From a virus (taxonomy: Duplodnaviria; Heunggongvirae; Uroviricota; Caudoviricetes), in the IMG/VR virus record IMGVR_UViG_3300031414_000001, positions 240,437 through 304,436 of that record: a stretch of 64,000 nucleotides of DNA; one strand, 5' to 3'. Numbering within the stretch: the first letter of the stretch is position 1; each line of letters begins with the position of its first letter. The notes below the pieces were generated by a model. That model searched no databases. It was not told where the DNA came from and was given only the letters and a program-made list of their open reading frames with translations. Shown here in pieces: positions 17,220 to 64,000 of this stretch. A program made the translations under genes and the position numbers.

Positions 17220-17812
17220 ATTACCCTGAACCCTTCAAGTGTTTTTAATTTGAATTTTTCCAGATCACTAATGTTAATCATAATATCCTCACGAATTAAA
17301 TTCGGAAGAACTAGATTGTAGTACCAGTTAACTTCTTGCTGGAATAATTCATACGGAATAATGTTCTGTACTGTCAGTTGTTGGAAGAAATATTCTTCAC
17401 CATATTCCTCAAATACGTCTTCAGCATCAGAGCCAGAAGAACAAGAAATATATCGGCGTTCCCAATTCGTTTTATGATCGCCAACAACTAAACACAAATC
17501 ATCGTTGTACCTTCCATTGTACCACTGGAACTCGCTATCTGACAAGGAAAATTCTGCCCAAACCGCGTGATCTCGTTCTACAATACTAATCTCAAATACT
17601 GGATATTCAGAATCAGATTCATCATATACCGAAAAGTACTTAGGACGCATAACAATGTTCTGTCCAGTATCCCTGAAGTTCAAGAACTCGAACTCATAAC
17701 TTTCTTCAGTACCCGCAAGATGCGAGTACTTTTCTTCCATCTGAAGATATAAGTTATATACATGTCGAATCATATAGAACGTTTCTGGAGTACTGAATTC
17801 TTCACGTTTCAT
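17216..17812 (-). CDS. early paralog family member 2
   Basis: EEYGEEYFFQQLTVQNIIPYELF motif. Confidence 0.5.
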   Translation of the reverse strand: MKREEFSTPETFYMIRHVYNLYLQMEEKYSHLAGTEESYEFEFLNFRDTGQNIVMRPKYFSVYDESDSEYPVFEISIVERDHAVWAEFSLSDSEFQWYNGRYNDDLCLVVGDHKTNWERRYISCSSGSDAEDVFEEYGEEYFFQQLTVQNIIPYELFQQEVNWYYNLVLPNLIREDIMINISDLEKFKLKTLEGFRVI

Positions 17813-18392
17813 CTAAGTAACCTTTTACTTGTTCTAAGAACGTACTCCAGTACTGTTCCTGATAATTGAAATTAATACTCATTTTAAATGGAAGTGCACG
17901 AATCGTTTTATGAATAGCATCATACTCTGCCATATCTTCATAATACGGAATATCGTGTAACGTTAATAACTGGAACAACCATTCCTCAGTAATCTGTTCA
18001 GGTAATATAGCAACTACATCACCACCAGTACTCATAAAGTACGCATGACTCTCTGGAATGTTATTCATCGAAATTTGATTGTGAACCTTAGAAATACTAT
18101 TGAAGAACCAGGCAACATCATACACAACACTTAAGGAACACAATGTCTGTACTGAAGCAGCTAAACAACTAATAGTACTTCTACTGAACGTAAAATTGAT
18201 TTGCTTTTTATGATGGGCTGGATGATCTGATTCACTAACCGAAAACGAATACTGTATAGAATACTCAGTACTGTTAACACCGCACGGCACGTTTGTATCA
18301 CGTGTCTTAAGTACGAATGGCTTATCTCGTAACTTCGGCAAGTCCTTCACGATTTCATGTAATGCTGTCAGTACTTCTTTCATATTAACCAA
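17802..18392 (-). CDS. early paralog family member 3
   Basis: ILPEQITEEWLFQLLTLHDIPYYEDM motif. Confidence 0.5.
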   Translation of the reverse strand: MVNMKEVLTALHEIVKDLPKLRDKPFVLKTRDTNVPCGVNSTEYSIQYSFSVSESDHPAHHKKQINFTFSRSTISCLAASVQTLCSLSVVYDVAWFFNSISKVHNQISMNNIPESHAYFMSTGGDVVAILPEQITEEWLFQLLTLHDIPYYEDMAEYDAIHKTIRALPFKMSINFNYQEQYWSTFLEQVKGYLDET

Positions 18393-18898
18393 TTGCTAAG
18401 ACTGTAAGGATAATGTGTATCATCTTTATGTAATTCAATTAATTCAGAGTACTTCAACAAAGCATTTAATGTATTATGATGAATGTCCTTCCGAATATAT
18501 CCAATATATCCTGAAGTATGAAGTAGACACAAATAATAATAATCATATAATTCAGAATCATTATACAGTGTCTGTAACTGGAAATCTAATGCTTCATCAA
18601 ACTCCGGTATTCTACGTAACTGTCGGTCAATCCTTCGATGATTGTAGTTAGTACCTGAACCATCAAAAATATAAAATGAAGCATGGTGTCTGACAATTGA
18701 TGCGTCACCATCACTCATAAGGAGAGTATAATTCATTCCAGCTTTACCTTTTCGATAAATCTTATCCGAATAAAATCTATAAGACTTTATACCAATAGAA
18801 TTTGTACTCAACCGTTCAGTACTAGCTTCTTGATGTGCTCTAATAGAAGCTACTTTATCTGCCACAAATTTTGCTTTGTTGTATATTTCTAAACTCAT
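18380..18898 (-). CDS. early paralog family member 4 (divergent)
   Basis: Similar size and position; the motif is degenerate. Confidence 0.4.
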   Translation of the reverse strand: MSLEIYNKAKFVADKVASIRAHQEASTERLSTNSIGIKSYRFYSDKIYRKGKAGMNYTLLMSDGDASIVRHHASFYIFDGSGTNYNHRRIDRQLRRIPEFDEALDFQLQTLYNDSELYDYYYLCLLHTSGYIGYIRKDIHHNTLNALLKYSELIELHKDDTHYPYSLSNWLI

Positions 18899-19503
18899 AA
18901 CTTCGCCGTTCTCCGTATTGCGAATTCGACTAATTTAATATCATCCCGTACTTTCTTCATAGCACCGGAATCATTAAGGACTTCCCTGAATTTCTGAACA
19001 CCAGTACTATCATTAGCTATTAATTGAAGAACACATTGATGCTCTTTCTCAATATCTACAAAGTACTGATATAAATCTTCTGAACTTAAATCTAATAAAG
19101 TTAAATGCTGGAAGTACTGTTCTTCTGATATAGGAAATGGAAGTACTTTAAGTGTTTCTCTATCCTGTACCCAAATCTTATCTGAATCCAGTACTCTACC
19201 GAAATTGATTCCAGTACTTGAGGCTTCACCAAAGAATTGACAGCAATCCCATCTGTCATGTTCGAAATCCATACTGTATTCAAATACAAATACATCAGGT
19301 TCATATATCTTTAATTGTACCCATTGTGCTGTACAAATTAATCTGTACTCCAATGAACCATGTCTACCACCCATGTTATTAACACTATAAGAACCTTTCT
19401 TACATGAATCCAGTACTAAATTGTCCACAAGCTGAATTAAAATATTCTGTTCTTCATAGAACTGCTTTAATAACTCACAATTTCTCACACGCTTCCCTCG
19501 CAC
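18895..19503 (-). CDS. early paralog family member 5
   Basis: LPFPISEEQYFQHLTLLDLSSEDLYQYF motif. Confidence 0.5.
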   Translation of the reverse strand: MRGKRVRNCELLKQFYEEQNILIQLVDNLVLDSCKKGSYSVNNMGGRHGSLEYRLICTAQWVQLKIYEPDVFVFEYSMDFEHDRWDCCQFFGEASSTGINFGRVLDSDKIWVQDRETLKVLPFPISEEQYFQHLTLLDLSSEDLYQYFVDIEKEHQCVLQLIANDSTGVQKFREVLNDSGAMKKVRDDIKLVEFAIRRTAKL

Positions 19504-19594
19504 CCTCGCCGCCGCCCATTATACCTTAATATCTATAATGAGAAGCGGAAATTTTTTCTGGTTATTTTTTGTACACGTTTTTTAAGGTGAAGAC

Positions 19595-20287
19595 TTATTT
19601 ATCTCCGTGAAAATCATCAAAATGTTCACGTTCTACATCCTTCGCCCATTCTTCATCACGTGCCTCAATACGGTCTTTCTCAACCTGAATCAATCCTTCA
19701 AGAACTTCCCGTACTGATTGTACCATACTTTCTTTGTTCGTTTCATCTATTTGATCTTCTGCTATCCATCCTGCGTTGAATGAATATGCCTTGAACTTCG
19801 TAACACCGTCCATTACATATGAACCTGTATTCATGAACAAATCAATATCAGATTCTAACGGTACTGGAAACCTCGTTAACTCCTGAAACACTTGTTCCTC
19901 TTGTAAAGGATATTGTAATGAACATTGTTTAGCTTCACGTAAACTAATCGCATGACTTATTAATAATTCGGTACTATCCTTTCGGTACGTACTGAATCCT
20001 ATATTATCACAATTCGAATTCAATCGAACATGAGATGAACGCAAATTAGATACTACTGTTCCTGTATCGTAAAAACATGTACAATGAATTATCTCATAAT
20101 CCGTGTCTTCACCAATAGCATAAGCATTGAAGGTCATTCGGTCGTCACGTGCTCGTACTAAACGACAGCGAACATTATCGTTCTTAAAGGATATGTCATT
20201 TAAAACTTCTGTCTCAAATGGCTCCATCAACATCTTCAATACATCTTTAAACGCATCTTGTACGTAAAGGTTCCTAAACGTTGTCAT
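19595..20287 (-). CDS. early paralog family member 6
   Basis: LQYPLQEEQVFQELTRFPVPLESD motif. Confidence 0.5.
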   Translation of the reverse strand: MTTFRNLYVQDAFKDVLKMLMEPFETEVLNDISFKNDNVRCRLVRARDDRMTFNAYAIGEDTDYEIIHCTCFYDTGTVVSNLRSSHVRLNSNCDNIGFSTYRKDSTELLISHAISLREAKQCSLQYPLQEEQVFQELTRFPVPLESDIDLFMNTGSYVMDGVTKFKAYSFNAGWIAEDQIDETNKESMVQSVREVLEGLIQVEKDRIEARDEEWAKDVEREHFDDFHGDK

Positions 20288-20912
20288 GTATCGTTCGCTC
20301 CTGAATCTCGGTTTCTAATACTTCAATTAACTCTAAAATTTCTTCTGTACTCAAAATATCCAGTACTCGATAATCTAACTTCATCGTACAAAAGAAACCT
20401 TTTTCATCCCTCTCGTACTCAGTCATCCTGTGCGGATATATCTGTACAGCAATTAACTGAGTCAGGACTTCATTCATTGTATAACGTGTGAGGTTCTGAA
20501 AGATTATCGGGTCAATTATATCTGGTTCAAGACTTGTATCAGCCGACAAAGCAGGATATGTCTGAGCCATCTTATCTAACCTTCCTAAACTTGCACGACG
20601 TATTCCACGACTCATAACCCAAGTATAAGGCCATCGTGTAGGAAATATCGCTCGTACATCATCCCATATCTCAGGCTGGAATGGCTCGTTATTTGAATCG
20701 TAATACAAAAACTCAGTACATCCCTCAAATTCTTTATCAAGCATCTCTATGTATGCTATACTTGAGTTTACTGATGTACGATAATTTTTACCCGTACTTA
20801 ACTGCTTAACCTTAAATGTAAATCCTAATCCTTCATCTAACCTGTACATACAATACAGTTCATCCAGTACTTTCATTAATCGAAGTACTTCATCCAGCTT
20901 TGGAGGCTTCAT
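20274..20912 (-). CDS. early paralog family member 7
   Basis: IIDPIIFQNLTRYTMNEVL motif. Confidence 0.45.
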   Translation of the reverse strand: MKPPKLDEVLRLMKVLDELYCMYRLDEGLGFTFKVKQLSTGKNYRTSVNSSIAYIEMLDKEFEGCTEFLYYDSNNEPFQPEIWDDVRAIFPTRWPYTWVMSRGIRRASLGRLDKMAQTYPALSADTSLEPDIIDPIIFQNLTRYTMNEVLTQLIAVQIYPHRMTEYERDEKGFFCTMKLDYRVLDILSTEEILELIEVLETEIQERTIHDNV

Positions 20913-21525
20913 GCTCTAATCCTATTACAGTACTATAATACAAATCTTTCAACGCAGCTTCACGTTCTTCACCTAAACCAACAAATGGTGCTAAGTTCAC
21001 TGCGTACTTCTGAATACCAACATCCTCATTGATAAGAACCTGATTCAGTAGTATAGCAGTTAAATCTACCATTCCATACTTAGACATAAGCATGAACTCC
21101 ATGACTTCTAATTCTTCTGGATCATTCTCATGAAGCATCTCAAATACCTTAGTAGGATGATTACCCTTCAAGAAGTAATAAGGTTCTGCTGCGTTTGGAA
21201 TAGTACAAAGACTACGACCATCGTAAGAACTAATATATTGCCTCTGCTGTTCAGCAGTAGTCATAGAAAACATTTGCTCACGAGTAGCTTTGTGTAACCT
21301 GGAACTCTGGAAACTCAAATGAGCATTATCATAACCAACATGAATGTTACATGTTACTGAAGCACCAAACGCTGGATAGTACTTCGTAGTCTGATAATCA
21401 AAAGAAGAACCATAATTCGCTACCGCCAATGTTTCAATTCGAGGAAACATCTTCAAGTACTGTTCACGTAAATGAGTAATTAGCTCGTAGTGAAAATCAA
21501 TCGTCTGTAACATCATATGCTCCAT
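20890..21525 (-). CDS. early paralog family member 8 (divergent)
   Basis: Same size class, tandem position. Confidence 0.4.
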   Translation of the reverse strand: MEHMMLQTIDFHYELITHLREQYLKMFPRIETLAVANYGSSFDYQTTKYYPAFGASVTCNIHVGYDNAHLSFQSSRLHKATREQMFSMTTAEQQRQYISSYDGRSLCTIPNAAEPYYFLKGNHPTKVFEMLHENDPEELEVMEFMLMSKYGMVDLTAILLNQVLINEDVGIQKYAVNLAPFVGLGEEREAALKDLYYSTVIGLEHEASKAG

Positions 21526-22099
21526 CTAAGTAAGGTACTAACAAATCCAGTACTGTTTGTACTTCTAAATCAAAATCATTAAGTACCATTCCAATCGTTA
21601 TTGCTGAATGGTCATTATGACGAAACATTTGAATCATCTTCTCGCACTCTGTATCCCACATACCGTAATCTTCTTCAGGTAATGTTTCCTGTACTGTCAT
21701 ACGCTGAAAGAAATATTCTTCAGGGAAAGGATATGAAATGAAAGTATGTTTCTGACCGTCCCTGCCATTACTTGGATCGAACAGTGCGTAGTACCGTGGA
21801 TGGTCTTCTTTCCAAAACGCAATACGCATACCGTTAGAATCAAAAGTACTTAAGTATTGAGAACTCGTATTAAAGGACATGCTGAATACAATGTCCTCCT
21901 GCCAACGCCCACCATTACCAAATAACTTTAAGATGTACTGGTACTCGTTTAAGTCACCATCACTCCACCGTGCTACGGAAGCACCGTATTCATCATTTAA
22001 CTGAACATAGGCTTTATCTTGAAAAGGTATCTTAGGAACAAGGTGCTCCCACGTTCCAAGAAACATTTCCTTTATCTTTTCGTACTTTTCGTAATCCAT
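21497..22099 (-). CDS. early paralog family member 9
   Basis: ISYPFPEEYFFQRMTVQETLPEEDY motif. Confidence 0.5.
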   Translation of the reverse strand: MDYEKYEKIKEMFLGTWEHLVPKIPFQDKAYVQLNDEYGASVARWSDGDLNEYQYILKLFGNGGRWQEDIVFSMSFNTSSQYLSTFDSNGMRIAFWKEDHPRYYALFDPSNGRDGQKHTFISYPFPEEYFFQRMTVQETLPEEDYGMWDTECEKMIQMFRHNDHSAITIGMVLNDFDLEVQTVLDLLVPYLDGAYDVTDD

Positions 22100-22707
22100 T
22101 ATTGAATGTATCCTTGTTCTTTAGCTTGTTCAATAATCTGTTCAACAACACCTTCGTAGGAGATTAAATCAATAGGTGCTTCAACGTGCTTGCCGTAAAT
22201 CATGAAAGCACGGTACTTCTCATTATGTAAGTACTGAATGCTTTCTTGTACAGTTTCAAACATCTTAATACCATTAGGTGAGTAATACCCTGCTTCAGCA
22301 CCCTGGAGTACTATCATTCCCTGGCCGACGAATGTTTGACCTTCCAGTACTTCATAATCATATTCAGTACGAAGCATACCAATGCGAACGTGTGGTTCAA
22401 AGAAGTCGCCGATTGTGATTGCGGAAGAATTGCCCTGTACAGTGTACGTAACAGTAAGACCTAAAGTACCGCCAATTTCTAAAAGAGTGTGTTCGACCTG
22501 ATCGCTGAGGACGCTGGTTCGACCATTCTGAAGTTTATCTTCGATTTGGAGAAGTAACTGTATCAGTACTTCAGAGATTTTGAGGAACTTCGTGTAGTAT
22601 TCTTCGCCGAGGTTAATGAGGGATAAACCGTTATGAGCATTTTGTTTAATACGATTCAGGCGAGAATTCCATTCACGATTAGCTAAGCCGCAAGCAGTGC
22701 TTTCCAT
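22099..22707 (-). CDS. first gene of the tandem array (202 aa); family membership uncertain
   Basis: Intact ORF with AAGGAAACAAC-ATG RBS; similar size. Confidence 0.45.
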   Translation of the reverse strand: MESTACGLANREWNSRLNRIKQNAHNGLSLINLGEEYYTKFLKISEVLIQLLLQIEDKLQNGRTSVLSDQVEHTLLEIGGTLGLTVTYTVQGNSSAITIGDFFEPHVRIGMLRTEYDYEVLEGQTFVGQGMIVLQGAEAGYYSPNGIKMFETVQESIQYLHNEKYRAFMIYGKHVEAPIDLISYEGVVEQIIEQAKEQGYIQ

Positions 22708-51853: not shown

Positions 51854-52480
51854 ATGTTACCATTTCCAATTATAAACAAATTAACAGAACGTCCATCAGA
51901 AAATACTATTATTACATTTCTTAAAACTGGTGGAACTCTTACAAAAACTAATATAAATGAATCTCCTAATGATTTTTTCACAGAATCATATAACGCAATT
52001 CAATTCAATTCAGGATCAGCAAATATTCAAGTAGGTTCAGGTGGGATTCCTGCTATATGGCAAATAGGGAACAGTACTAACTTCCGCATTGAAACATACG
52101 TAAAGCTTTCAAATACTGGAACTAAAATACTATGTGGTAATCTTCAGAACAATGGTACTGGTTCATGGTGGATGGTATTAAACAATGTCTTTCAGAACAG
52201 TACAGCAGTTGCTTTAGATGGATTTAGTACTACTGGTGCTGTACAACGTTTCCATTTCACTGGAATGACAACATTACCAATTAATGTATGGAATCATATT
52301 GTGCTTGAACGTATAGGAAGTACTATAACATGTTATATCAATGGAACATCTATTGGTTCATTAACTATGACATTGGGTTTCCAGACACATTCAAACGCAT
52401 TTAGAGTAGGCGACAGTACTGACAATGCTTATAGCTTTAATGGTATTATAGATAGTTTCAAAATGACAATGAATGCATAA
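51854..52480 (+). CDS. MLPFPxL-tagged jelly-roll-like protein (208 aa)
   Basis: Tag MLPFPIINKL (divergent); C-terminal FNGIIDSFKM. Confidence 0.6.
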   Translation: MLPFPIINKLTERPSENTIITFLKTGGTLTKTNINESPNDFFTESYNAIQFNSGSANIQVGSGGIPAIWQIGNSTNFRIETYVKLSNTGTKILCGNLQNNGTGSWWMVLNNVFQNSTAVALDGFSTTGAVQRFHFTGMTTLPINVWNHIVLERIGSTITCYINGTSIGSLTMTLGFQTHSNAFRVGDSTDNAYSFNGIIDSFKMTMNA

Positions 52481-52490
52481 GGAGATTAAT

Positions 52491-53654
52491 ATGCTACCAT
52501 TTCCAATTATAAGTCAGTTAACAATACAACCTGCTAAGCCAACAATACAAGCATTAAACTTTGTTGCGAGTGGCGTGTATCTGTTATACAGTACTGGAGA
52601 GTTATTTTTTAGAGGTCGAGGAAATTCAGGTTATAAAGGCGATGGAACAAATACCGCTGCTCAATATAATTCATGGAATCCATCTAATACTAATGTTATC
52701 ATGGTTAGTACTGGCCCTGGCCCTGGTGTAGTAATTAAGAATGATGGTACTTATTGGACTACAGCAAGTTCTAATTATATGGGAATAAGTACTGGTTACG
52801 TTCAGTATAAATGGTCTGATTGTACTTCTAAATTCACAGCAATTACTAGCAATCCTGGTAATATTAAGCAAATAGTTTCTACTGGTGGTGGAGTTTTTGT
52901 TCTATTGTATTCAGGAGAACTGTATGCTATTGGTACTAATTCTAATGGTTGTTTAGGTTTAGGTACATCAACGTCTTACTCAGTAACTAACTTCACATTA
53001 GTTGGTACTAACGTAAAGAAAATAAGTGCTAGTTCTAATCACGCAATGTATATTAATAATAACAATACTCTATTCAGTACTGGATATAATATCATTGGAC
53101 AATTAGGTAATAATAGTACTACTACAGGAATATCATTTACTCAACTATCAGCAGGGCAATTAACAGCTTATCCATTTGTTCAGGATGTTGTATGTATTTC
53201 TAACAGTACTGTTGTTATTTCTAGACAAACTGCGGAATCAGCAAATATAATGTTAGCATGTGGTGCAGCATTATATTCAGGTACAGGAACAACGAGTGGT
53301 GGATATACTACATTTGTATACATTGGTACAATGAGTGGTACTACAGCTAGAGTTAATGCGTTGAGTTCAACTATGGGTTCAGCCAATAACAATATGATAA
53401 TGACAGAGAAAGGATTATATGCTATTGGTTCAGGACAATATTATCAGCTAGGTAATGGCAATGCTAATGATGTGTCAGTATGGACAGCAGTTCAAAGTTT
53501 ACCAACTACAGATTACAGTACGATCAAGTTTTTTGGTTCGAGTTCAGAAGGTTCTGCCTTTGTTTACCTGGACAAAGTTTACATTTTTGGTGTTTCTGGT
53601 CAATGGGGAACAAGTAGATCCTTACCAACGTTATCAACCGATACACCATATTAA
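52491..53654 (+). CDS. MLPFPxL-tagged RCC1-like beta-propeller protein (387 aa)
   Basis: Real start MLPFPIISQL after AAGGAGATTAAT. Repeats GTNSNGCLGLGTSTS, GYNIIGQLGNNSTTTG. Confidence 0.7.
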   Translation: MLPFPIISQLTIQPAKPTIQALNFVASGVYLLYSTGELFFRGRGNSGYKGDGTNTAAQYNSWNPSNTNVIMVSTGPGPGVVIKNDGTYWTTASSNYMGISTGYVQYKWSDCTSKFTAITSNPGNIKQIVSTGGGVFVLLYSGELYAIGTNSNGCLGLGTSTSYSVTNFTLVGTNVKKISASSNHAMYINNNNTLFSTGYNIIGQLGNNSTTTGISFTQLSAGQLTAYPFVQDVVCISNSTVVISRQTAESANIMLACGAALYSGTGTTSGGYTTFVYIGTMSGTTARVNALSSTMGSANNNMIMTEKGLYAIGSGQYYQLGNGNANDVSVWTAVQSLPTTDYSTIKFFGSSSEGSAFVYLDKVYIFGVSGQWGTSRSLPTLSTDTPY

Positions 53655-54207: not shown

Positions 54208-54867
54208 TTAACCCCCGAAGCTACGTGAACCAGAAGAATGTGAACTGAAAGAACTATGAGATGAAGAACTCATTTTACTTACAGTACCGCCAAATCCACC
54301 ACGAGTGGTTGTAGTAGTCGTAGCAGCTTTAGGTGCTAATGAACTTTTAGGAACACTAGCAGTACCTTTAGAAGTAAAGGAACCAAATGAAGTACCTTTG
54401 CTATCTACGAACTTACCGTACATTGGAGAGTTGTAACTCTTTGAACTGTACAGTGGTTGGCTCGGATAGTTAGCATGAGAAGAACTATATCCGCTCATTA
54501 ACGGGAACCACATAAATGAACTATGTGAACCGTTAGAAGTACTTACGTTGTTCGCAGTACTGGCTTGTGAGTTACATTGACCGATGCCAAATTCATCTTC
54601 ACAATCTTTCTGAGAAGAATACTTAGGTGCGACCTTTGCGTTTTGTGCTAATGCGTTCTGGTAATCCAGAGCACATTGATCTTTCGCAGCTTGGTTAGCA
54701 GCACTGCGTTCACAATCCTGGATAGTGTTATACACTGAAACGTTCTCTGCTTCATCGCAGCCAGTAAGGAACATAGAACCACCAACAGCGATGAAGATAG
54801 CACTATATTTCCAGAAGGTGCGTACTTTGCGAAAACGGTCATAGTTCATTACTTTAGTACGTTTCAT
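54208..54867 (-). CDS. ygiB: YgiB-like (DUF1190) lipoprotein
   Basis: Lipobox FLTGC. Colinear similarity to E. coli YgiB along the length (SVYNTIQDCERSAAN, APKYSSQKDCEDEFGIGQC, FMWFPLMSGY, QPLYSSKSYNSPMYGKF, VPKSSLAPKAATTTTTTRGGFG, ...SRSFGG C-terminus). Confidence 0.75.
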   Translation of the reverse strand: MKRTKVMNYDRFRKVRTFWKYSAIFIAVGGSMFLTGCDEAENVSVYNTIQDCERSAANQAAKDQCALDYQNALAQNAKVAPKYSSQKDCEDEFGIGQCNSQASTANNVSTSNGSHSSFMWFPLMSGYSSSHANYPSQPLYSSKSYNSPMYGKFVDSKGTSFGSFTSKGTASVPKSSLAPKAATTTTTTRGGFGGTVSKMSSSSHSSFSSHSSGSRSFGG

Positions 54868-54917
54868 TTACTTCCCTCTCAATTAAAAACTCCCCGTACA
54901 TTGTACGGGGAATGGTA

Positions 54918-55235
54918 TTACTGCTGGTCTTTCTTGACTTCTTCGAACTCAGCGTCTGATTCTTTGGTTTCGTCAACCTTAGTTTCGTCGTGCTTCGCCG
55001 ATTCAACATCGGTCAGAATTTCCTGTTCGATCTCTTGGTACTCATAGTACGCCGTGTACGCAAGGTACAGGATGAAAATGAGCACAAGACCCAGCCACGA
55101 TGCCCACAGCAGACCAGACAGGGCGAGAGCGATATACAGTGGTGAGCATTCGATGAATTGTTTGAACTCCACCTTTACTTCATTCAGTACACGCTTACCT
55201 ACAAGTACTACAACATCTTTAGTGTTCTCGTCCAT
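54918..55235 (-). CDS. small membrane protein with acidic C-terminal tail (105 aa)
   Basis: One or two TM segments (LYIALALSGLLWASWLGLVLIFILYLAY) then an E/D-rich tail. Confidence 0.5.
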   Translation of the reverse strand: MDENTKDVVVLVGKRVLNEVKVEFKQFIECSPLYIALALSGLLWASWLGLVLIFILYLAYTAYYEYQEIEQEILTDVESAKHDETKVDETKESDAEFEEVKKDQQ

Positions 55236-55277
55236 CTTTGATTCCTCTCGTTCAGTTGATATACGTAGTATACGGGA

Positions 55278-55676
55278 TTACTCAGAGTCCGTCAAGGACT
55301 TTTTACGAGCTTTTTCTTCCCGCCGTGCTATGCTAGTATTACGAAGTGTAGTTAATCCTTTCACCAGTACTGCGAACACAGCAAGGAGAACAATATAACC
55401 AATACACATAGAACCGAACAGATTAGCCATGATTACAAAGAACATGGAACCAGTCAATACTTCCATCACCTTACACAAACAACCAATAATTGTCAGTAAG
55501 ATAATAGGTGAAGTTGCTTCCAGTGGGATGTAATTACCCAGGAAGTTAATCATACGATTGAAGGTATCGCTGACTTTATCATAGCCGAATGACCAATCAA
55601 CTGCGAACAGTACAGCAATACCAATCCAGAACCAGGTATACACACTGGCAATGGTTTCTAGAACAGGATGAAACAT
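55278..55676 (-). CDS. integral membrane protein (132 aa), basic C-terminus
   Basis: Four hydrophobic helices; C-terminal RREEKARKKSL. Confidence 0.5.
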   Translation of the reverse strand: MFHPVLETIASVYTWFWIGIAVLFAVDWSFGYDKVSDTFNRMINFLGNYIPLEATSPIILLTIIGCLCKVMEVLTGSMFFVIMANLFGSMCIGYIVLLAVFAVLVKGLTTLRNTSIARREEKARKKSLTDSE

Positions 55677-56026
55677 TATTTTTTACCTCGTTTTGATAAA
55701 CACCAATCCCTGATACATGATAAGAATGCCAGGAACATACATACACCAACTACCAGTACTACAATACATAACCACAGAGTCCAGATAGCATAGAAGAATG
55801 CCACTGGTGGAGCTACAGCACCCCATAGTAAGAATGGGATAGTAAGTATTACTGACAGTACTACATGGACAATACAAGTACCTACAGCATCATCTGTATC
55901 AAAGAATTGTTCTTCTAAGAAGTCATATAGATCAGTTCCTAGAGTCCACAGTACTAATACGATGACAGCCATTACCATGATGATATATGACGGCACAGGT
56001 GCGTAAGTCAAGAACAAATTATACAT
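55676..56026 (-). CDS. small membrane protein paralog A (116 aa, ...CLSKRGKK)
   Basis: 3 TM helices, GTDLYDFLEEQFF loop, basic C-terminal tail. Confidence 0.55.
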   Translation of the reverse strand: MYNLFLTYAPVPSYIIMVMAVIVLVLWTLGTDLYDFLEEQFFDTDDAVGTCIVHVVLSVILTIPFLLWGAVAPPVAFFYAIWTLWLCIVVLVVGVCMFLAFLSCIRDWCLSKRGKK

Positions 56027-56370
56027 TAGATTTTACCTCGTTTCGCTAAGCACCATGCGTTGAATGAATGTAATAAATGGCGAACTAAGCGAACACTGTA
56101 CATGAACAGTATGATTGAACACCATAAGTTGAACGCAGCCCAGCCATAGATAAGATTTTCAGTGAAGATAAGCCCAAAGGCATTAATAACTAATACCCAC
56201 CAGAAGTAGATCTTCATGAAGTCTAAGGAGTTCCACCATAACTTCTTGAAGCGATCATACCAGTCAGTACCGAACAGCCACATCATGTATACTAACAAGG
56301 TCAGTACTACATATACAGCAGAAGGGTAGTAGATGTATGGTTGTACGAAAGTCCAGATTGATTCAATCAT
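56026..56370 (-). CDS. small membrane protein paralog B (114 aa, ...CLAKRGKI)
   Basis: Same topology; GTDWYDRFKKLWW loop. Confidence 0.55.
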   Translation of the reverse strand: MIESIWTFVQPYIYYPSAVYVVLTLLVYMMWLFGTDWYDRFKKLWWNSLDFMKIYFWWVLVINAFGLIFTENLIYGWAAFNLWCSIILFMYSVRLVRHLLHSFNAWCLAKRGKI

Positions 56371-56705
56371 ATGCGGCGTCCTCGTTTATCTGCGAAGTAC
56401 TGACGAAGATCCATAATCTTACCATGAATAAAGATGGCTAAAGTTATGATTAGTACAATAGTGAAATAGCCTAAGTGGACATAAGGGGCTTTCCCAAATC
56501 CATCAAATGTTAGTCCGATTACTATTGAGGCAATACTAATACCTATGCTGAATAATACATGCATGAACAACGGTAGTCCTTCCGCAAATTTAGCACTACT
56601 ATAGTAATAGTCAGCACAGGTTAACCACCCAATACCAATTACTACTAATGAAGCTATATTCAGGAATAAACAAACCAGTTCAAGTACTTCAAAGATGTTT
56701 GTCAT
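56367..56705 (-). CDS. small membrane protein paralog C (112 aa, ...FADKRGRRI)
   Basis: LTCADYYYSSAKF loop, basic tail. Confidence 0.55.
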   Translation of the reverse strand: MTNIFEVLELVCLFLNIASLVVIGIGWLTCADYYYSSAKFAEGLPLFMHVLFSIGISIASIVIGLTFDGFGKAPYVHLGYFTIVLIITLAIFIHGKIMDLRQYFADKRGRRI

Positions 56706-56753
56706 TTGCTTATCTCGGTTAACAAAGAACTCCCCGAAGGGAGTTCTATCAGA

Positions 56754-57533
56754 TTACTTTACTTCTTCCAGGTACTGACTACGTTCGTAGATCCAGTCCA
56801 TGTAGTGAAGCAGATGGCTACGCTTACGCAGCGTCGGATTAGTACGGATTTCATGAATCGCTTCATCCCAGGTAATGGAAGTGCGGTTCAGTTCAGTCAG
56901 TACATCGCGACAGTAACGTTGACCTGCATCACAAGCACCAGCACGGTTCAACGCACGAGTGCTGATAGTGCGGTTTTTGAAGTCACGCCCGATTTTGCGG
57001 AATTCTTCGGTAGTCAGGTAACGCAGGTTACGAGTAACATCGTTACGAGTTTTCAGAATCGCAAGACCTTCATCCGTGAACATGAAGTGACGGATCGCAG
57101 GGTTGCGAGAACTGATCAACACATCATTGAATTCACGCCAATCCAGAAGTTTGAGTGCTTCAGTAACTGGCACGGCATCTTGCGTACATGCGATTTGAGA
57201 ACCGAAACGACGAGCGGTACGATTGTTACCGAGAATGTCTTTGATCACAGTGTACGGCATCTGAATGTCAGCAAGTACATTCCAGCCATCCTGGTAGTAC
57301 GCAGTTTCCAGAAGTTCAATCCACTGATCAGTACTGAGATTAGTTGGCGTCGCACGGTTGTTTTTGATCAGTGATTTGATGATCGGCTTAGACATTTTGA
57401 ACAGGTAAGTGTTCAGTACTTCAGTGTCTACACCTTCCAGATCACAAATACGAATGGATTTCCATTGTACGTGCGGCAGAAGTGCTTTGTCCAGTGTCAG
57501 AAGTGTTGCGTCTTCAATTTGAAGTTTAATCAT
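56754..57533 (-). CDS. hypothetical soluble protein (259 aa) inserted in the membrane-protein array
   Basis: Long intact ORF; no motif. Confidence 0.5.
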   Translation of the reverse strand: MIKLQIEDATLLTLDKALLPHVQWKSIRICDLEGVDTEVLNTYLFKMSKPIIKSLIKNNRATPTNLSTDQWIELLETAYYQDGWNVLADIQMPYTVIKDILGNNRTARRFGSQIACTQDAVPVTEALKLLDWREFNDVLISSRNPAIRHFMFTDEGLAILKTRNDVTRNLRYLTTEEFRKIGRDFKNRTISTRALNRAGACDAGQRYCRDVLTELNRTSITWDEAIHEIRTNPTLRKRSHLLHYMDWIYERSQYLEEVK

Positions 57534-57559
57534 TTTTCACTACCCTTACGAAGTTAAAG

Positions 57560-57898
57560 TTAACGACCACGTTTAGACCAGAAATACTTCCTGGACGTTT
57601 CGAACCAATTGAAAAGATTGAATGCGACAAACAGAACAATTAAGATCATGTTTATCACGCCTACAATACCATATGCGAAGTTATGTGTAAACTCAGCACT
57701 CCTGGCCTGAGTGACAGCACCTAAGCCCATAATAAAGATCCAGAAGAACCACGCAATAGCATTACAAATTGCGAGAACACCGACGAAATCTTTATTCAGT
57801 TTAAAGTAGTAGTTAGCACCTGTCCAGTACCCGACGAGGGCAACAATCAGAAATGCTAATACTACGAATGCCAGTACTACACAGATTTCAATAAACAT
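57560..57898 (-). CDS. small membrane protein paralog D (112 aa, ...FWSKRGR)
   Basis: WTGANYYFKLNKDF loop, basic tail. Confidence 0.55.
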   Translation of the reverse strand: MFIEICVVLAFVVLAFLIVALVGYWTGANYYFKLNKDFVGVLAICNAIAWFFWIFIMGLGAVTQARSAEFTHNFAYGIVGVINMILIVLFVAFNLFNWFETSRKYFWSKRGR

Positions 57899-58236
57899 TA
57901 CAGTTTACCCCGCTTTTTGCCGAAGTACTCTTTCAGTTCACCGAAACCATAATAACATCCGAAGCAAACAATCACCACGTACATTAGCAATGATACGCCA
58001 GTACACCACATTAAACCGTAGCGAAAGCCTTTCTCGATGCTTTGTTCAACTAAACTGACGAGTGCCATGTTTACCAGGAAACACATCGCCTGAATACCGA
58101 TAGCAAGTTTTAACATTTGCTTCGTATCAGATTCCAGTTTAGTATAATAGTCGGCGTATGTCAAGTTCCCGACGAGATAAATTATTGAGATCGCGACCCA
58201 CACAAACAAGTTGATAGGGGCTAAAATGTCGTACAT
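57898..58236 (-). CDS. small membrane protein paralog E (112 aa, ...FGKKRGKL)
   Basis: LTYADYYTKLESD loop, basic tail. Confidence 0.55.
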   Translation of the reverse strand: MYDILAPINLFVWVAISIIYLVGNLTYADYYTKLESDTKQMLKLAIGIQAMCFLVNMALVSLVEQSIEKGFRYGLMWCTGVSLLMYVVIVCFGCYYGFGELKEYFGKKRGKL

Positions 58237-58238
58237 AG

Positions 58239-58574
58239 TTACACCACCTTATTACGTTTACGTCCGAAATACTGACGAATGCCACCTGAATGACGCACGA
58301 ACAGTACTACAGCACCAATTGTTAATACCCATGAACATACGCAGCTAATACCAACGTACATTTCCCAGGGACTGATTTTTTTTGCGGCATCAGGTAAAGC
58401 AGCAGCGAATATCACGAAGGATATTACAGTGGCTACTAATGAAAGTAGTTTGTAATCACTGATGAAACTATCTGAGAACTTATCATAGTAATCAGCATAA
58501 GTTAAGTAACCAATGTACAGTACTACAACTGACACTAACCAAATGTGTGTGACAATTAATCCATAGAGTTCCAT
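58239..58574 (-). CDS. small membrane protein paralog F (111 aa, ...FGRKRNKVV)
   Basis: LTYADYYDKFSDS loop, basic tail. Confidence 0.55.
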   Translation of the reverse strand: MELYGLIVTHIWLVSVVVLYIGYLTYADYYDKFSDSFISDYKLLSLVATVISFVIFAAALPDAAKKISPWEMYVGISCVCSWVLTIGAVVLFVRHSGGIRQYFGRKRNKVV

Positions 58575-58583
58575 ACAATCCCC

Positions 58584-59372
58584 TTATGATTCTAAGCAGA
58601 CTTTCTCTGCATGTTTTTCCCACTTATTCGGGAACTGAGTATACAAGCCAGCAAGCTGTACTGGCATACGTAATGATGGCATACGAAGCTTATCACTGTT
58701 ACGAAGCATGAAGTCCAGGATCTGGTCAGAACCTTTCTGGTCTACACCAAGACTCTTAACAATGTTAGTAGTACGCATGATGTTTTCAATATGAACCATA
58801 ACACTTTCATTGTCATGAATTTCGAGGTCAATGAACGCACCACGAGTCATAAGAGCACATACATGCGGAGCTAGAGAACTACGACCTTTAGAAATCTTAA
58901 CCAAATCTTTGTTCGTAATGAATACTACTTTACCTTTGAACTCGAATTGAGTAGGAATTCCAGCATCACGAAGTACCTGAGAAGAACTCATGTAAGTAAT
59001 GATACGTTTGTCATCTGACTCCAGAGATGCTTTCAGGAGGTTCAGTTTATCTTCTGTATCGAATACATCAACGTCATCGAGTAACAGTACTGAACCCAAC
59101 TGACGAGCGTTATACAACGCCTGGTATAAACCTAAACCAGTACATTTACCATTCAGATAAAAGTAGTTACAGAAACCTGTATCGTGTGCTTCTTCTAAAC
59201 GCTGAATGACATTGTATGATTTACCAATACCACTCGCACCCGTTACAGTCATGGACTTAATCGGGTTATACGGATTCAGGATACATTCTACCATATCCAT
59301 CATTGCGTCGAAGTTATCTGCGATGCGTAATTTCAGTTTTTCACGATGTAAAGACATTTTGACCTCTCTCAC
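58584..59372 (-). CDS. AAA+/P-loop ATPase (262 aa)
   Basis: Walker A TGASGIGKS; Walker B VLLLDDVD. Confidence 0.65.
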   Translation of the reverse strand: MREVKMSLHREKLKLRIADNFDAMMDMVECILNPYNPIKSMTVTGASGIGKSYNVIQRLEEAHDTGFCNYFYLNGKCTGLGLYQALYNARQLGSVLLLDDVDVFDTEDKLNLLKASLESDDKRIITYMSSSQVLRDAGIPTQFEFKGKVVFITNKDLVKISKGRSSLAPHVCALMTRGAFIDLEIHDNESVMVHIENIMRTTNIVKSLGVDQKGSDQILDFMLRNSDKLRMPSLRMPVQLAGLYTQFPNKWEKHAEKVCLES

Positions 59373-59412
59373 TTAACGCAACCATTATAGCAGACAGAAA
59401 CTGGCGATGCAA

Positions 59413-59422
59413 GGGTAAATAC
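59413..59422 (+). promoter_or_regulatory. GGGTAAATAC motif 23 nt upstream of the tagged gene at 59446
   Basis: caaGGGTAAATACgtaaaaac. Confidence 0.4.
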
Positions 59423-59445
59423 GTAAAAACAAGAGGATTTTTTAC

Positions 59446-60084
59446 ATGCTACCATTTCCACAACTGTTCACATACGGGAACACGATAGAAACAGCACCTG
59501 TTTTTTTAATGACAGACTTTTTAACAACGGCTGATATTAAAGATAAAGGTCCATATTCAATACCAGTAACTAATAATGGTAACATTCCTGTCGGGGCTGA
59601 CGCATACGGAACTTATATGAATTTTACAGGTCTAACAACTCAATGGTTAGAATTTGCTTCAACCAATTTGAATATAGGTGAAGCTGAAATTCGTGTTAAA
59701 CTATCAAACTTCCAATATAGAAACACGATGTATCAAAATGTTATTTTAGATGGTAGACCATATCAAACAAATGGTCCATATTTAAATTTCGCTTATACAT
59801 CAAATGTTACAGCACCATTCCAGGTTTATGCGAACTACAATTCAAGCCAAACATTATATTCTGGAACAATTAATGCTGCTTCATACCCAATAGAAGTTAT
59901 ATTAAAAATCAGAACTACAGGAACTTCTATTTTAATTAATGGTGTTCAAGTTGCTAGTTCTTCTAATACTATTAATTTTGTTAATCAACAATTCAAAGTT
60001 GGGAGAAATGCTTTTATTGCTACTGCTGCTGTTCCATATCTATATGCTAAAGTATATCATTTAGAGATCAGAAAATACCTATAA
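59446..60084 (+). CDS. MLPFPxL-tagged jelly-roll/lectin-like protein (212 aa), orphan copy outside main array
   Basis: Tag MLPFPQLFTYGN; C-terminal LYAKVYHLEIRKYL. Confidence 0.65.
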   Translation: MLPFPQLFTYGNTIETAPVFLMTDFLTTADIKDKGPYSIPVTNNGNIPVGADAYGTYMNFTGLTTQWLEFASTNLNIGEAEIRVKLSNFQYRNTMYQNVILDGRPYQTNGPYLNFAYTSNVTAPFQVYANYNSSQTLYSGTINAASYPIEVILKIRTTGTSILINGVQVASSSNTINFVNQQFKVGRNAFIATAAVPYLYAKVYHLEIRKYL

Positions 60085-60112
60085 AAAAGGGAGCCATCGG
60101 CTCCCTTTTCTT

Positions 60113-61111
60113 TTATGCGATCATTGCTTTGACCGCTTTTACAATCTTCTGCCAGAATGACAGTTCAGCAGGAATCAGGATTGTATGTTGTTCCTGTACT
60201 TTCTGTTGCATTTCTTCAGACTGGCGTTGTGTCGCTGCGATGTTCTCTTTACGAATCTTCTCGCGACGCTCAGCTAATGCTGTTTTACTTAACTCGAATA
60301 CTGAGGATTGAATCTTATTGTGAATCAGATTCAAGAAATCATCAGCAGACATTTTCTTTTTGTTGTACGTCTTGTACACCGAGAAGTTAATGTTTGGGTT
60401 CTGGATACGGTACTTATGCTCACGCTCGATAAGCATTACCACCAGCGAGTTCATCAGTTCATTCCATGCATCCGTATTATAACGGGTAAGCAATGAATCG
60501 CTTGTATAGTTATAACTATTGTTCGGAGCGGAGATGTTACGAACGAACTTACCATTCTTCATATACATCTCGACCAGATGTTTACGCAGGAACGGAGGGA
60601 ACACAGCACCTTTAGCTAAATGCTCAATGTCCTTCATCGACCCCAGGTTCTTCTGGAAATCCAGGTAACAGAAGTTCTGTACCAAAGTACGGGCAGCGTT
60701 ATACGGGTTACGTCCGAATGAGATTTGTTCATCGAACCACGATTTAAACTCACTGTATTCCGCAAACAAATTACCACGAGCGGAGTTACAACGTTCACAG
60801 AGTAAATGCTGATTATCAATTGTATCAGCACCCGCCAGTGATTTCAGAATATCATGATCCATAGTCATGGCAGTTGGTTTCTTCTTATACAACTGAGAAG
60901 ATACTAGTACTAAACCGTTCTGAGGATGAATGGTGAAGTACAGTTTGTCATCACCACAGCAATCACATTTCAATCCATCACGTTTAGCAATGTTGATCAG
61001 CATTAAGTTACCACTGCTGATTTTGATTTGTGAGCGTACTGCTTCAGTGTTATCCAGGACGTACTGAGCTTTTACTTTCACGTTGTTCATGCTATCTGCT
61101 AATGCTTTCAT
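60113..61111 (-). CDS. HNH endonuclease-domain protein (332 aa)
   Basis: CDCCG zinc knuckle then MTMDHDILKSLAGADTIDNQHLLCERCNSARGN (HNH catalytic His/Asn/His and CxxC). C-terminal ~180 aa unassigned. Confidence 0.65.
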   Translation of the reverse strand: MKALADSMNNVKVKAQYVLDNTEAVRSQIKISSGNLMLINIAKRDGLKCDCCGDDKLYFTIHPQNGLVLVSSQLYKKKPTAMTMDHDILKSLAGADTIDNQHLLCERCNSARGNLFAEYSEFKSWFDEQISFGRNPYNAARTLVQNFCYLDFQKNLGSMKDIEHLAKGAVFPPFLRKHLVEMYMKNGKFVRNISAPNNSYNYTSDSLLTRYNTDAWNELMNSLVVMLIEREHKYRIQNPNINFSVYKTYNKKKMSADDFLNLIHNKIQSSVFELSKTALAERREKIRKENIAATQRQSEEMQQKVQEQHTILIPAELSFWQKIVKAVKAMIA

Positions 61112-61150
61112 ATCAATTCTCTCTTAAAATTTACAGGGAGTCTTTCGTTT

Positions 61151-61186
61151 CAGTACAGTCATAATAGCAAAAGGCTCGACGGTCGT
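61151..61186 (-). promoter_or_regulatory. early sigma70 promoter in terminator hairpin (TTGACG-N17-TATTAT, then tgtACTGAAAC)
   Basis: Reverse complement reads aagggcTTGACGaccgtcgagccttttgcTATTATgactgtactgaaacg. Confidence 0.5.
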
Positions 61187-61202
61187 CAAGCCCTTTTTGT
61201 GT

Positions 61203-61547
61203 TTATTGTGGAGTAATTGAGTTTCGGTACTTGATTAGACCTTTAACCACGACAGTTAGGCCGCCGATACCACCGAACATACAAACACACATTAAGAACA
61301 TAAATCCTAATGGCGTTAGTTCATCGGGTTTTAATTTAGTTAGTATCTGAACGAGTAACATAGCGAATGCCATAATCAAATACAGTACTGAGGACAACCG
61401 CATATCAAAGTTATCAGTGAAGTACTTGGACACTAATGTATTACGTTTAAAGAATACAAGTATCCATCCACAACAGATGTAAAGAATAAATGAGCACACA
61501 ACGAATGGTGCTATTACATTTGAAATGTCAATGATATGTTGAAGCAT
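61203..61547 (-). CDS. integral membrane protein (114 aa)
   Basis: Three hydrophobic helices. Confidence 0.5.
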   Translation of the reverse strand: MLQHIIDISNVIAPFVVCSFILYICCGWILVFFKRNTLVSKYFTDNFDMRLSSVLYLIMAFAMLLVQILTKLKPDELTPLGFMFLMCVCMFGGIGGLTVVVKGLIKYRNSITPQ

Positions 61548-61813
61548 TAAGATTCCTCCCCAAATGGAGAACGCAGATTACGATTACGCTCACAGCGTTT
61601 CTTGATACACGCATGAACAATGTTAGTGCTTACCTCAGTGAAAAGATACTCAGCAATCTCTGAACGAGTATAACCCTTTTCGAAAAGGGTATTGAAAGTA
61701 TCTTGTACTGTTTGTGAAAAAGCCCTTGATGCTTCTTCATTAAGCAGAGCACCGTTAGGTTTCAGATCGTTGTTATGGTCTTCCATAGTACTATCCTCAA
61801 TGAAAAAGCCCAA
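61547..61813 (-). CDS. hypothetical protein (88 aa)
   Basis: Intact ORF. Confidence 0.45.
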   Translation of the reverse strand: MGFFIEDSTMEDHNNDLKPNGALLNEEASRAFSQTVQDTFNTLFEKGYTRSEIAEYLFTEVSTNIVHACIKKRCERNRNLRSPFGEES

Positions 61814-61832: not shown

Positions 61833-62219
61833 TTACAGAACCAGGTTTGGATGATTTTGTTTAATCGCAGCCACCACATTATCAATTGACGCTATGTAGT
61901 TTTTTTCACCTTTACGCAGAACAAGGTTCTTTTGTTTCATGCCGATCAGTTCGTAGTGTTCACCACCGAAGTTGATTACCGCACCTACCGCTGAATCTGT
62001 AAGACCGAGTACGACCGTATTAGCACGGAGTTTCGCCATTTCAGAACTATCGCCGCCACTGAATACACCAGAGATTTTCATTTGAAAACCATCGTCAGTG
62101 AAGGTACAGCGACCACGTTCCATTTGAGCCAAGCCATGCTTTTCTACGATCTGTATAAACGCTTTGTTCAGGTCAATAGTGATGGCAGCAATTTTGGCAC
62201 GAATTTCTTCATTAGTCAT
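61833..62219 (-). CDS. hypothetical protein (128 aa)
   Basis: Intact ORF. Confidence 0.45.
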   Translation of the reverse strand: MTNEEIRAKIAAITIDLNKAFIQIVEKHGLAQMERGRCTFTDDGFQMKISGVFSGGDSSEMAKLRANTVVLGLTDSAVGAVINFGGEHYELIGMKQKNLVLRKGEKNYIASIDNVVAAIKQNHPNLVL

Positions 62220-62288
62220 GATACAAACTCCGGTTCAGTTAAGATAGAGCTATCTTACAGGATAGCTCAGGACTCGTCAAGGACTATT

Positions 62289-62723
62289 TTAAAGTAAATC
62301 CAAATAGTACTTTGGTTTAATTGTGTTGGTATACTTATACCATTCTGGTTTCATAACCAGCTTTTCAATAATACGAGCACGAGATAGTTCTATTTCTGAT
62401 TCAGTTGGATTGTAATCATTACAGAACTCATGTGGTATATCATTAATACAGTTAATAGCAGTATTAGTTATATTAATACCACGCCGCAAACATTCTGTAA
62501 CTAAATCTTCATGTCGCATCTTCAGATACAATAACTTGTCATAGAAGAACGTAACATGACCAGTACCGAGAATGTAAGTACTGTTAATTTTGAAAGAGCT
62601 TTTGGTTTTACCATCCTGAACATGTTTACGAACAGCACCAAATACACGTGGTAATTCACGATATTCAGCCATAAGGTGTTGGTCAGCGAGTTCTTTAACA
62701 GGAATTAGATTAATGCGGGTCAT
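62289..62723 (-). CDS. denV: pyrimidine-dimer DNA glycosylase / endonuclease V (T4 DenV family)
   Basis: Near-identity stretches to T4 endonuclease V: [46 protein letters not shown]-like C-terminus. Confidence 0.9.
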
Positions 62724-62795
62724 TACTTATTCTCATTTAATTTCAACAAGGCTATAATAGCAAAAAAGGCTGACTCTCGTCAACCTCTTTTTTTG

Positions 62796-63685: not shown

Positions 63686-63869
63686 AACATTTCACCTTAG
63701 ATACGTATTTCATTTTATAGTACAGGTTATCTAAACGTACAGTATAGATAGCATCGGCAATTAAATCGTCAACTTCCCGTTCTGTTTCAGCCCGGATCAC
63801 GATGGGAATTTCTTCATACACATCTTCACCGAACTTTAAACCTTTTAGAAGTACATTGTATACTAACAT
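63654..63869 (-). CDS. hypothetical small protein (71 aa)
   Basis: Intact ORF. Confidence 0.35.
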   Translation of the reverse strand: MLVYNVLLKGLKFGEDVYEEIPIVIRAETEREVDDLIADAIYTVRLDNLYYKMKYVSKVKCYETERNCGDE

Positions 63870-64000
63870 AAAATGTTATCCTCTGTCAAGCAGATTCTTT
63901 TGCGAAATAGTTTTTAACTAGCATGAATAGATACCAGTATGATCCTATCACAAGTGCGACATTGATACAAGCGTCCAGATCAACGCTCTTGATGAAAATC

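Follow-up and report, generated by a model that had tools for sequence, protein, structure and literature searches.

A conserved array of predicted three-helix membrane proteins downstream of an NrdC.10-type ATPase gene in a GAP32/CBB-like jumbo phage

Layout of the membrane-protein locus

We examined a tandem array of genes for small, predicted three-helix membrane proteins within a 64,000-nucleotide stretch of phage DNA (hereafter, the window; positions 240,437 to 304,436 of IMG/VR record IMGVR_UViG_3300031414_000001). The source is a jumbo myovirus of the GAP32/CBB ("Rak2-like," Mimasvirus-type) group. Across the locus (54900-61600), the DNA shares 81-84% identity with Erwinia phage Kaldavass and Xanthomonas phage XbC2, and DNA-level conservation in GAP32, Serratia phage BF, and the Erwinia pEa_SNUABM phages is limited to the ATPase gene. 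An initial annotation of the window described six paralogs and two more divergent relatives, clustered with an AAA+ ATPase gene and an HNH endonuclease gene. All of these open reading frames (ORFs) are present at their reported coordinates, with the array, the ATPase gene, and the HNH gene on the minus strand. That description overlooked a conserved gene, encoding a protein of 259 amino acids (aa), which splits the array. The ATPase, the proteins of the array with three predicted transmembrane (TM) helices, and one further small protein are encoded as follows:

58584..59357, minus strand: P-loop ATPase, ortholog of T4 NrdC.10, first gene of the putative operon (phrog_1250, E 6.6e-101)
58239..58574, minus strand: 3-TM paralog U1, 111 aa; loop motif LTYADYYDKF, tail RKRNKVV
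57898..58236, minus strand: 3-TM paralog U2, 112 aa; loop motif LTYADYYTKL, tail KKRGKL
57560..57898, minus strand: 3-TM paralog U3, 112 aa; loop motif WTGANYYFKL, tail SKRGR
56754..57533, minus strand: 259-aa all-alpha protein, phrog_27654, splitting the array
56367..56705, minus strand: 3-TM paralog D1, 112 aa; loop motif LTCADYYYSS, tail DKRGRRI; orthologous group in 7/7 genomes compared
56026..56370, minus strand: 3-TM paralog D3a, 114 aa; loop motif FGTDWYDRF, tail AKRGKI
55676..56026, minus strand: 3-TM paralog D3b, 116 aa; loop motif LGTDLYDFL, tail SKRGKK
55278..55676, minus strand: divergent 3-TM paralog D4, 132 aa; motif DWSFGYDKV, longer charged tail; orthologous group in 7/7 genomes
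61203..61547, minus strand: 114-aa 3-TM protein, possible very distant relative, with both family motifs absent

The order of genes in this module is identical in all relatives examined (Kaldavass, XbC2, GAP32, BF, CBB, Yen9-04, and three metagenomic contigs): an NrdC.10-type ATPase, one to four genes of the upstream (U) type, the 259-aa protein, three to five genes of the downstream (D) types, a small protein with one hydrophobic stretch, a DUF1190 lipoprotein, and convergent virion-protein genes. The window array occupies the same setting, directly after NrdC.10 and on either side of the 259-aa gene, and its stop and start codons overlap or abut. XbC2 has an additional 199-aa gene (7594-8193) between the ATPase and the first U paralog, which is absent from the window and from Kaldavass.

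Orthologs of the window genes already bear the label "membrane protein" in the annotations of GAP32, CBB, and related jumbo phages, so the window contains no new kind of element. Partial paralogy has already been published for CBB. What is added here is the recognition of five ancient subtypes in a fixed order, a predicted conserved cytoplasmic face, probable co-transcription with the NrdC.10 ATPase, and strict co-inheritance with the 259-aa protein, a fold orphan.

Common ancestry and predicted topology of the paralogs

Pairwise and profile comparisons indicate that the seven minus-strand genes at 55278-56705 and 57560-58574 (111-132 aa) are true paralogs. Smith-Waterman scores were converted to z-scores against two nulls, global shuffles and shuffles of 8-residue blocks that preserve the hydropathy pattern, and reached values of up to 15 and 11, respectively. 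Scores were 13.9 (global) and 7.2 (block) for the subgroup comprising 55676 and 56026, and 7-15 (global) and 3.4-11 (block) for the subgroup comprising 56367, 57560, 57898, and 58239, while the pair 55676/58239 bridges both subgroups (7.4 global, 4.7 block). The six core paralogs also match PHROG 13405 and/or 16874 ("membrane protein"; E 1e-9 to 1e-20), with cross-hits between the families. These scores, far above chance, bear out the shared ancestry initially proposed for the six genes, and, together with two conserved motifs, place it beyond mere hydrophobicity. The proposal that 55278..55676 is a divergent relative also holds, given its match to PHROG 19792 (E 2e-10), a family that matches 55676..56026 as well, and its positional orthologs in GAP32 (tail RKYILSKKK) and Yen9-04 (tail RKYFITRKV). 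A Pfam scan of all nine small proteins gave nothing above threshold.

Three hydrophobic segments are evident from hydropathy in all eight ORFs of the initial description, including 61203..61547. Family membership of the latter is unproven, and it appears to be at best a very distant relative. Its pairwise z-scores were no better than those of shuffles, one marginal value excepted; it scored 9.7 bits against the family hidden Markov model (HMM); and alignment to the family with hhalign gave a probability of 52% (E 1.4e-4) over the full length. Neither 61203..61547 nor 54918..55235, a small gene at the other end of the locus, matched PHROG 13405, 16874, or 19792.

The paralogs are under purifying selection that is 2-3 times more relaxed than that on the ATPase and 259-aa genes. 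Ratios of nonsynonymous to synonymous substitution rates (dN/dS), calculated against Kaldavass only, were 0.17-0.38 for the paralogs, compared with 0.085 for the ATPase, 0.12 for the 259-aa gene, and 0.13 for the HNH gene. Identity between subgroups is low (10-28%), as it would be if the ORFs were spurious or decaying and alike in hydrophobic composition only. The chance of this is practically nil, and the notion is already refuted by the block-shuffle scores, the dN/dS values, positional orthologs in more than 10 genomes, and 76 clusters of full-length homologs, with both motifs kept in each of the 16 clusters read. Gene conversion was considered as a cause of DNA repeats within the array and rejected; the repeats merely encode the conserved motifs.

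The two motifs were defined from an alignment of 41 sequences, comprising the window proteins and positional homologs from six cultured relatives. Motif 1, (V)GW-x3-(D/N)YY, lies just after helix 1, and motif 2, R-x-YF-x2-KR(G/N)K, lies at the C-terminus. Both are found in the six core paralogs, in which all of the loop motifs and basic tails quoted initially are present. The 55278-type proteins have degenerate versions (DW-x-F/L-G-x-DK and RKY...KK), and 61203..61547 has neither. Information content across the family is high in only two stretches, positions 22-31 and 102-111 (57898 numbering), and the sequence varies in TM2, loop 2, and TM3. Lysine plus arginine residues average 5.4 in the tail, 1.7 in loop 1, 0.7 in loop 2, and 0.05 in the N-terminus, and, by the positive-inside rule, this distribution predicts an N-out/C-in topology, which would therefore place both conserved motifs on the cytoplasmic side of the membrane. 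The charges of loop 1 and the tail are opposite, acidic (-1.8) in the former and basic (+4.4) in the latter. Accordingly, the paralogs are predicted to be small inner-membrane proteins with three helices, whose sole conserved face would be cytoplasmic and formed by the juxtamembrane GW-x3-DYY turn with its acidic loop and by the basic amphipathic tail. An AlphaFold2 model of the 57898..58236 protein (14-sequence alignment; predicted local distance difference test score, 86.7) comprises three long helices, with a short helix over ADYY and an extension of helix 3 into the tail. A BFVD fold search with this model found nothing significant outside the family; a GAP32 family member was matched with an E value of 0.02.

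An old set of subtypes in a narrow clade of phages

The family appears to be confined to the GAP32/CBB-like phage clade. A tblastn search recovered it from 18 phage records only, from phages of Erwinia, Yersinia, Cronobacter, Pectobacterium, and Serratia and from one Xanthomonas phage. A word-indexed protein search found 18 relatives, compared with 76 clusters (50% identity, E up to 0.001) from an exhaustive HMM search of 1.84 billion representative proteins, all of them stand-alone proteins of ~80-135 aa.

Clustering resolved the paralogs into positional orthologous groups (U, D1, D2, D3, and D4) that are common to several genera. In every genome examined, the U, D1, D2/D3, and D4 types are each represented at least once and are arranged identically about the 259-aa gene. 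The number of U copies ranges from one (BF and Yen9-04), one plus a split copy (CBB), and two (GAP32) to three (window) and four (contig L011). The window clade has two D3 genes and, like CBB, no D2, so the window holds three U genes, D1, two D3 genes, and D4; totals per genome range from five to nine. Because the groups are shared across genera, the array is best described from these comparisons as an apparently old set of subtypes with local duplication, rather than the recent six-fold expansion that had been suggested. Lineage-specific expansion is restricted to the upstream group.

The arrays of GAP32 (GAP32_522-527), CBB (CBB_539-545), and BF (gp384-389) belong to the same family as the window array, with the same order, three TM helices, and both motifs; the window differs in copy number and subtype content, including the lack of D2. 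In the supplement of the CBB genome paper, CBB_539, 540, 541, and 543 are listed as BLASTP paralogs, with three predicted TM helices in the intact copies, and the corresponding proteins were not detected by mass spectrometry of CBB virions (PMC5259590). One U-type paralog of CBB (346911-347263) is split into CBB_540 and CBB_541, which are probably a frameshifted, decaying duplicate.

A predicted early operon with the ATPase gene

The following features delimit the transcription units of the locus:

61161-61189, minus strand: promoter of the HNH gene
59384..59412, minus strand: sigma-70-type promoter TTGCAT-17-TATAAT before the ATPase gene, read from sequence
55267..55295, minus strand: internal sigma-70-like promoter TTGACG-17-TATACT, a copy of a repeated early-promoter cassette
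54918..55235, minus strand: conserved 105-aa protein outside the family, encoded by the final gene ahead of the terminator; one hydrophobic stretch, acidic C-terminal tail
54889..54913, minus strand: intrinsic-terminator-like hairpin (11 pairs and a T run), predicted end of the operon

A -35/-10 pair precedes the ATPase in all five genomes aligned at this position: besides the window, Kaldavass and XbC2 have TTGACG...TACAAT, GAP32 has TTGACT...TATTCT, and CBB has a perfect TTGACA-17-TATAAT. In Kaldavass and XbC2, a terminator hairpin precedes this promoter and parts it from the HNH gene. Based on the positions of promoters and terminators and the overlapping or abutting codons, the genes from the ATPase through 54918 probably form one transcription unit, with HNH in a separate one.

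Given the sigma-70-type promoters, the operon is predicted to be an early one, read by host RNA polymerase. The pattern TTGACG-N16-18-TANNNT occurs eight times in the window, against 2.55 expected, and four of the eight are on the minus strand at 55-63 kb, in the gaps before 54918..55235, the HNH gene, 61833..62219, and denV. No T4-type late promoter was found in the module region. In CBB, the corresponding genes (CBB_538-546) are the last of a region that Buttimer et al. proposed, from RpoD-like promoters, to be early or involved in host takeover (PMC5259590).

The repeated cassette consists of an A-tract and a small hairpin overlapping the -35 TTGACG, followed after 17-18 nt by TAT(T/A)(A/C)T. 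Intergenic copies are located at 55267-55295, 61161-61189, 62252-62280, and 62754-62783 on the minus strand, and also at 63860-63889; the sequences at 55258-55304 and 62243-62289 share 70% identity across 47 nt. Across the whole window (64 kb), there is a single match to the T4 late-promoter consensus TATAAATA, compared with 8.1 expected from shuffles.

The NrdC.10-type ATPase and the 259-aa protein

The ATPase contains a Walker A motif (GASGIGKS) and a Walker B motif (LLLDDVD), and the residues G40, G43, G45, and K46 of the former and D94 and D95 of the latter are invariant in the alignment of its homologs. Its likely start is the ATG at 59357 and not the GTG at 59372. It is ~40% identical to T4-like NrdC.10 proteins over 96-100% of its length (tblastn), including both Walker motifs, but lacks the ~65-aa N-terminal extension of T4 NrdC.10. 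Identification as a P-loop ATPase is sound, while assignment to the AAA+ class went further than the Pfam matches, which are below threshold (AAA_22, 18.3 bits with a cut-off of 27; AAA_16, 17.1 bits with a cut-off of 32.6). A PDB search with the NrdC.10 profile gave P-loop-level matches only (E >0.4), and PDB sequence searches with the ATPase, the 259-aa protein, and the HNH protein gave nothing meaningful. The family is annotated as "unknown function" in phrog_1250. Many homologs of NrdC.10 carry the label "thioredoxin" or "processivity clamp loader," of which the first is presumably a mis-transfer from the nrdC gene name.

The ATPase gene lies immediately upstream of the array, as originally noted, in every examined genome with the family, and probably shares its promoter. 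It is not specific to the family: ATPase homologs were found in 1308 phage records, and the membrane proteins are present in 18 of them. In T4-like phages and phage XaC1, NrdC.10 is present with no TM array downstream; a search for a 3-TM gene after nrdC.10 in T4-like phages yielded only genes for soluble proteins. With regard to co-occurrence, which had been put forward as a check on the association, the ATPase accompanies the family in all genomes examined, but it mostly occurs without any array. The link probably represents co-transcription within the clade rather than a dedicated two-component system. In contrast, the phage records with the 259-aa protein are precisely the 18 that contain the membrane family; this protein has no detectable structural relative.

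A second array follows NrdC.10 in Asteriusvirus (PBECO4/121Q group). In Salmonella phage SD-15_S21, six or seven tandem proteins of 104-123 aa are encoded directly after NrdC.10 (5752-8145), each with three hydrophobic stretches and several ending in KRKRG. The position is that of the window array, but there is no 259-aa gene. Profile-profile comparison aligned only the last 22 residues with our family (probability 77%), and HMM scores were near those of block-shuffle controls, which suggests that the two arrays, though syntenic, are at best remotely related. One copy of the Asteriusvirus array (6090-6314) is apparently truncated.

Possible functions of the array

We tentatively favor the view that the paralogs are early factors that condition the inner membrane or exclude other phages, and, most specifically, a battery of proteins resembling Imm and Sie, although this is a possibility and not a probability. 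Shortly after infection, the paralogs would enter the host inner membrane and condition the infected cell's envelope, most probably as a set of blockers akin to Imm and Sie. Through its variable membrane and periplasmic parts, each paralog may occupy or mask a target of its own in the inner membrane, for instance a host membrane protein or a route used by entering phage DNA, while the common cytoplasmic face might serve assembly or a shared partner, for which the 259-aa protein is an obvious candidate. We favor this view because of the predicted early timing and inner-membrane location, the faster evolution of the membrane and periplasmic parts, the flux in copy number, and the envelope-directed neighbors of the array (the small hydrophobic protein and the lipoprotein). 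The variation from five to nine copies, with duplication of U and D3 and a split copy in CBB, fits diversification rather than a fixed machine. Among known exclusion proteins, T4 Imm and Sp, P22 SieA, and HK97 gp15 are small inner-membrane proteins that are mostly expressed early or constitutively. The window paralogs resemble them in being small, phage-encoded, predicted inner-membrane proteins that evolve faster than neighboring genes, and, like T4 imm and sp, are predicted to be early. They differ in having five ancient subtypes and a cytoplasmic conserved face; moreover, T4 Imm has two TM helices and is single-copy.

Several points weigh against this interpretation. Searches of Pfam, PHROG, and BFVD folds detected no similarity to characterized exclusion proteins. 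The conserved surface is predicted to be cytoplasmic, and an injection blocker might conserve its periplasmic face instead. Five subtypes have been retained in a fixed order from a time before Mimasvirus and Eneladusvirus diverged, a pattern more reminiscent of non-redundant subunits or roles than of an arms-race battery. In the literature on nrdC.10, the GAP32 paralogs, and these genera, we found no functional data on any member and no transcriptome, and a preprint on phiKZ vesicles had no bearing on the family. The early timing is a prediction from promoter consensus.

The same retention of subtypes raises the possibility of a hetero-oligomeric assembly in the inner membrane, in which the acidic loop 1 of one subunit docks on the basic tail of its neighbor and the whole anchors, or works with, the 259-aa protein and perhaps the NrdC.10 ATPase as a membrane platform or channel. 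We consider this rather unlikely. The presence of U, D1, D2/D3, and D4 types in conserved order in every genome examined, the restriction of the 259-aa protein to the 18 records of the family, probable co-transcription with overlapping or abutting codons, the location of the conserved residues on a single, predicted cytoplasmic face whose loop 1 and tail are oppositely charged, and the position of the Asteriusvirus array directly after NrdC.10 are all consistent with a complex, and the first of these, the shared face, and the co-inheritance fit it about as well as anything. On the other hand, the content of the array is not fixed (one to four U copies, no D2 in the window clade and CBB, a split copy in CBB), the Asteriusvirus array lacks the 259-aa gene, and NrdC.10 mostly occurs without any array. 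Should the assembly or the exclusion battery prove real, part of the "dark" early region of Rak2-like phages would be explained, and there might be a hint at the role of NrdC.10. A stronger form, in which the five subtypes, the 259-aa protein, and NrdC.10 constitute an undescribed phage membrane machine acting early in jumbo-phage infection, is a long shot; if true, it would offer the first functional handle on NrdC.10, which is conserved in >1300 T4-superfamily phage records. The module is a reasonable, not urgent, experimental target.

Lysis timing is suggested by size and architecture. Class I holins have three TM helices in an N-out/C-in arrangement, a length of ~95 aa or more, and a charged C-terminal domain, and the window paralogs are predicted to match this architecture (~105-115 aa, with a basic cytoplasmic C-terminus), as exemplified by lambda S105 and P1 LydA. 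The best non-family fold matches in BFVD are LydA-like, but not significant (E 0.4-1.0, TM-score 0.35-0.41). Neither of two genome papers on these phages mentions a holin, and CBB_187, the predicted CBB endolysin, has an N-terminal TM domain (PMC5259590). As holins, antiholins, or pinholin-type regulators, the paralogs would act with the endolysin of these phages, which is of the signal-arrest-release type. Against this, CBB_187 is far from the array (~350 genes), no endolysin gene was identified beside the module (a neighboring 170-aa protein has no Pfam or PHROG match), the paralogs number five to nine rather than one or two, and they match no Pfam or PHROG holin family. The promoters are of the sigma-70 early type, in a predicted early region, and early expression of a true holin would be lethal. 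Given the promoter type, the endolysin distance, and the copy number, a holin role is disfavored, and we regard it as improbable. Also improbable, in our estimation, is that the paralogs inhibit host inner-membrane proteins or membrane-acting defense effectors. A predicted early operon in a host-takeover region, membrane-embedded parts that evolve faster than their neighbors, and the PHROG category "moron, auxiliary metabolic gene and host takeover" would suit such a role. That category, however, is an automatic label only, and we found neither similarity to known anti-defense proteins nor a defense context, with the PADLOC library not searched.

Neighboring genes and other features of the window

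The genes on either side of the putative operon include the following:

60113..61111, minus strand: HNH endonuclease gene (PF01844, 27.3 bits with a cut-off of 21.4, residues 80-114; phrog_25420, E 1.8e-67)
60085-60109: bidirectional terminator after the 59446..60084 gene
59446..60084, plus strand: virion-structural-protein gene between HNH and ATPase (phrog_6011, E 8e-31)
54208..54867, minus strand: DUF1190 protein with lipobox LTGC (PF06693, E 8.7e-36)

The identity of the HNH gene is secure, with the Pfam threshold passed, but its grouping into one module with the ATPase and the array is not upheld: it has its own promoter and lies in a separate transcription unit. It belongs to a multi-copy gene family found in 54 Rak2-like phage records, and nothing was found that ties the membrane family to DNA handling or to the HNH gene. 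The initial description had also missed the plus-strand virion gene and the bidirectional terminator, which part HNH from the ATPase in the window. The two are likewise separated by an opposite-strand gene insertion in CBB and by a terminator in Kaldavass and XbC2. Such a plus-strand gene is absent from this junction in Kaldavass and XbC2, and two are present in CBB, which suggests that the junction is an insertion hot spot. The N-terminus of the 59446..60084 product (MLPFP) resembles that of an RCC1-like gene product at 52473-53654.

Downstream of the array, 54918..55235 has positional homologs in GAP32, CBB (CBB_546), and contigs L011, L012, and L013. A DUF1190 gene lies beside the module in every relative, although its membership in the module is uncertain. 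The DUF1190 protein is of the bacterial YgiB/YjfM type with a Ser-rich tail, and is 95% identical in amino acid sequence to its Kaldavass counterpart (dN/dS 0.06). We considered whether these two genes form a spanin pair and rejected this; the lipoprotein is 219 aa long and homologous to bacterial DUF1190 proteins, the periplasmic tail of the 54918..55235 protein is only ~45 aa, and a terminator lies between the genes.

The window contains no tRNA genes. A second tandem family, of six to nine consecutive soluble proteins of ~170-230 aa, is encoded on the minus strand at 17216-22707. Several of its members have a motif, EE-x-(Y/W/V)FQ-x-LT, located ~50-80 residues before the C-terminus (e.g., EEYFFQQLTVQ, EEWLFQLLTLH, EEQYFQHLTLL, EEQVFQELTRF, and EEYFFQRMTVQ).

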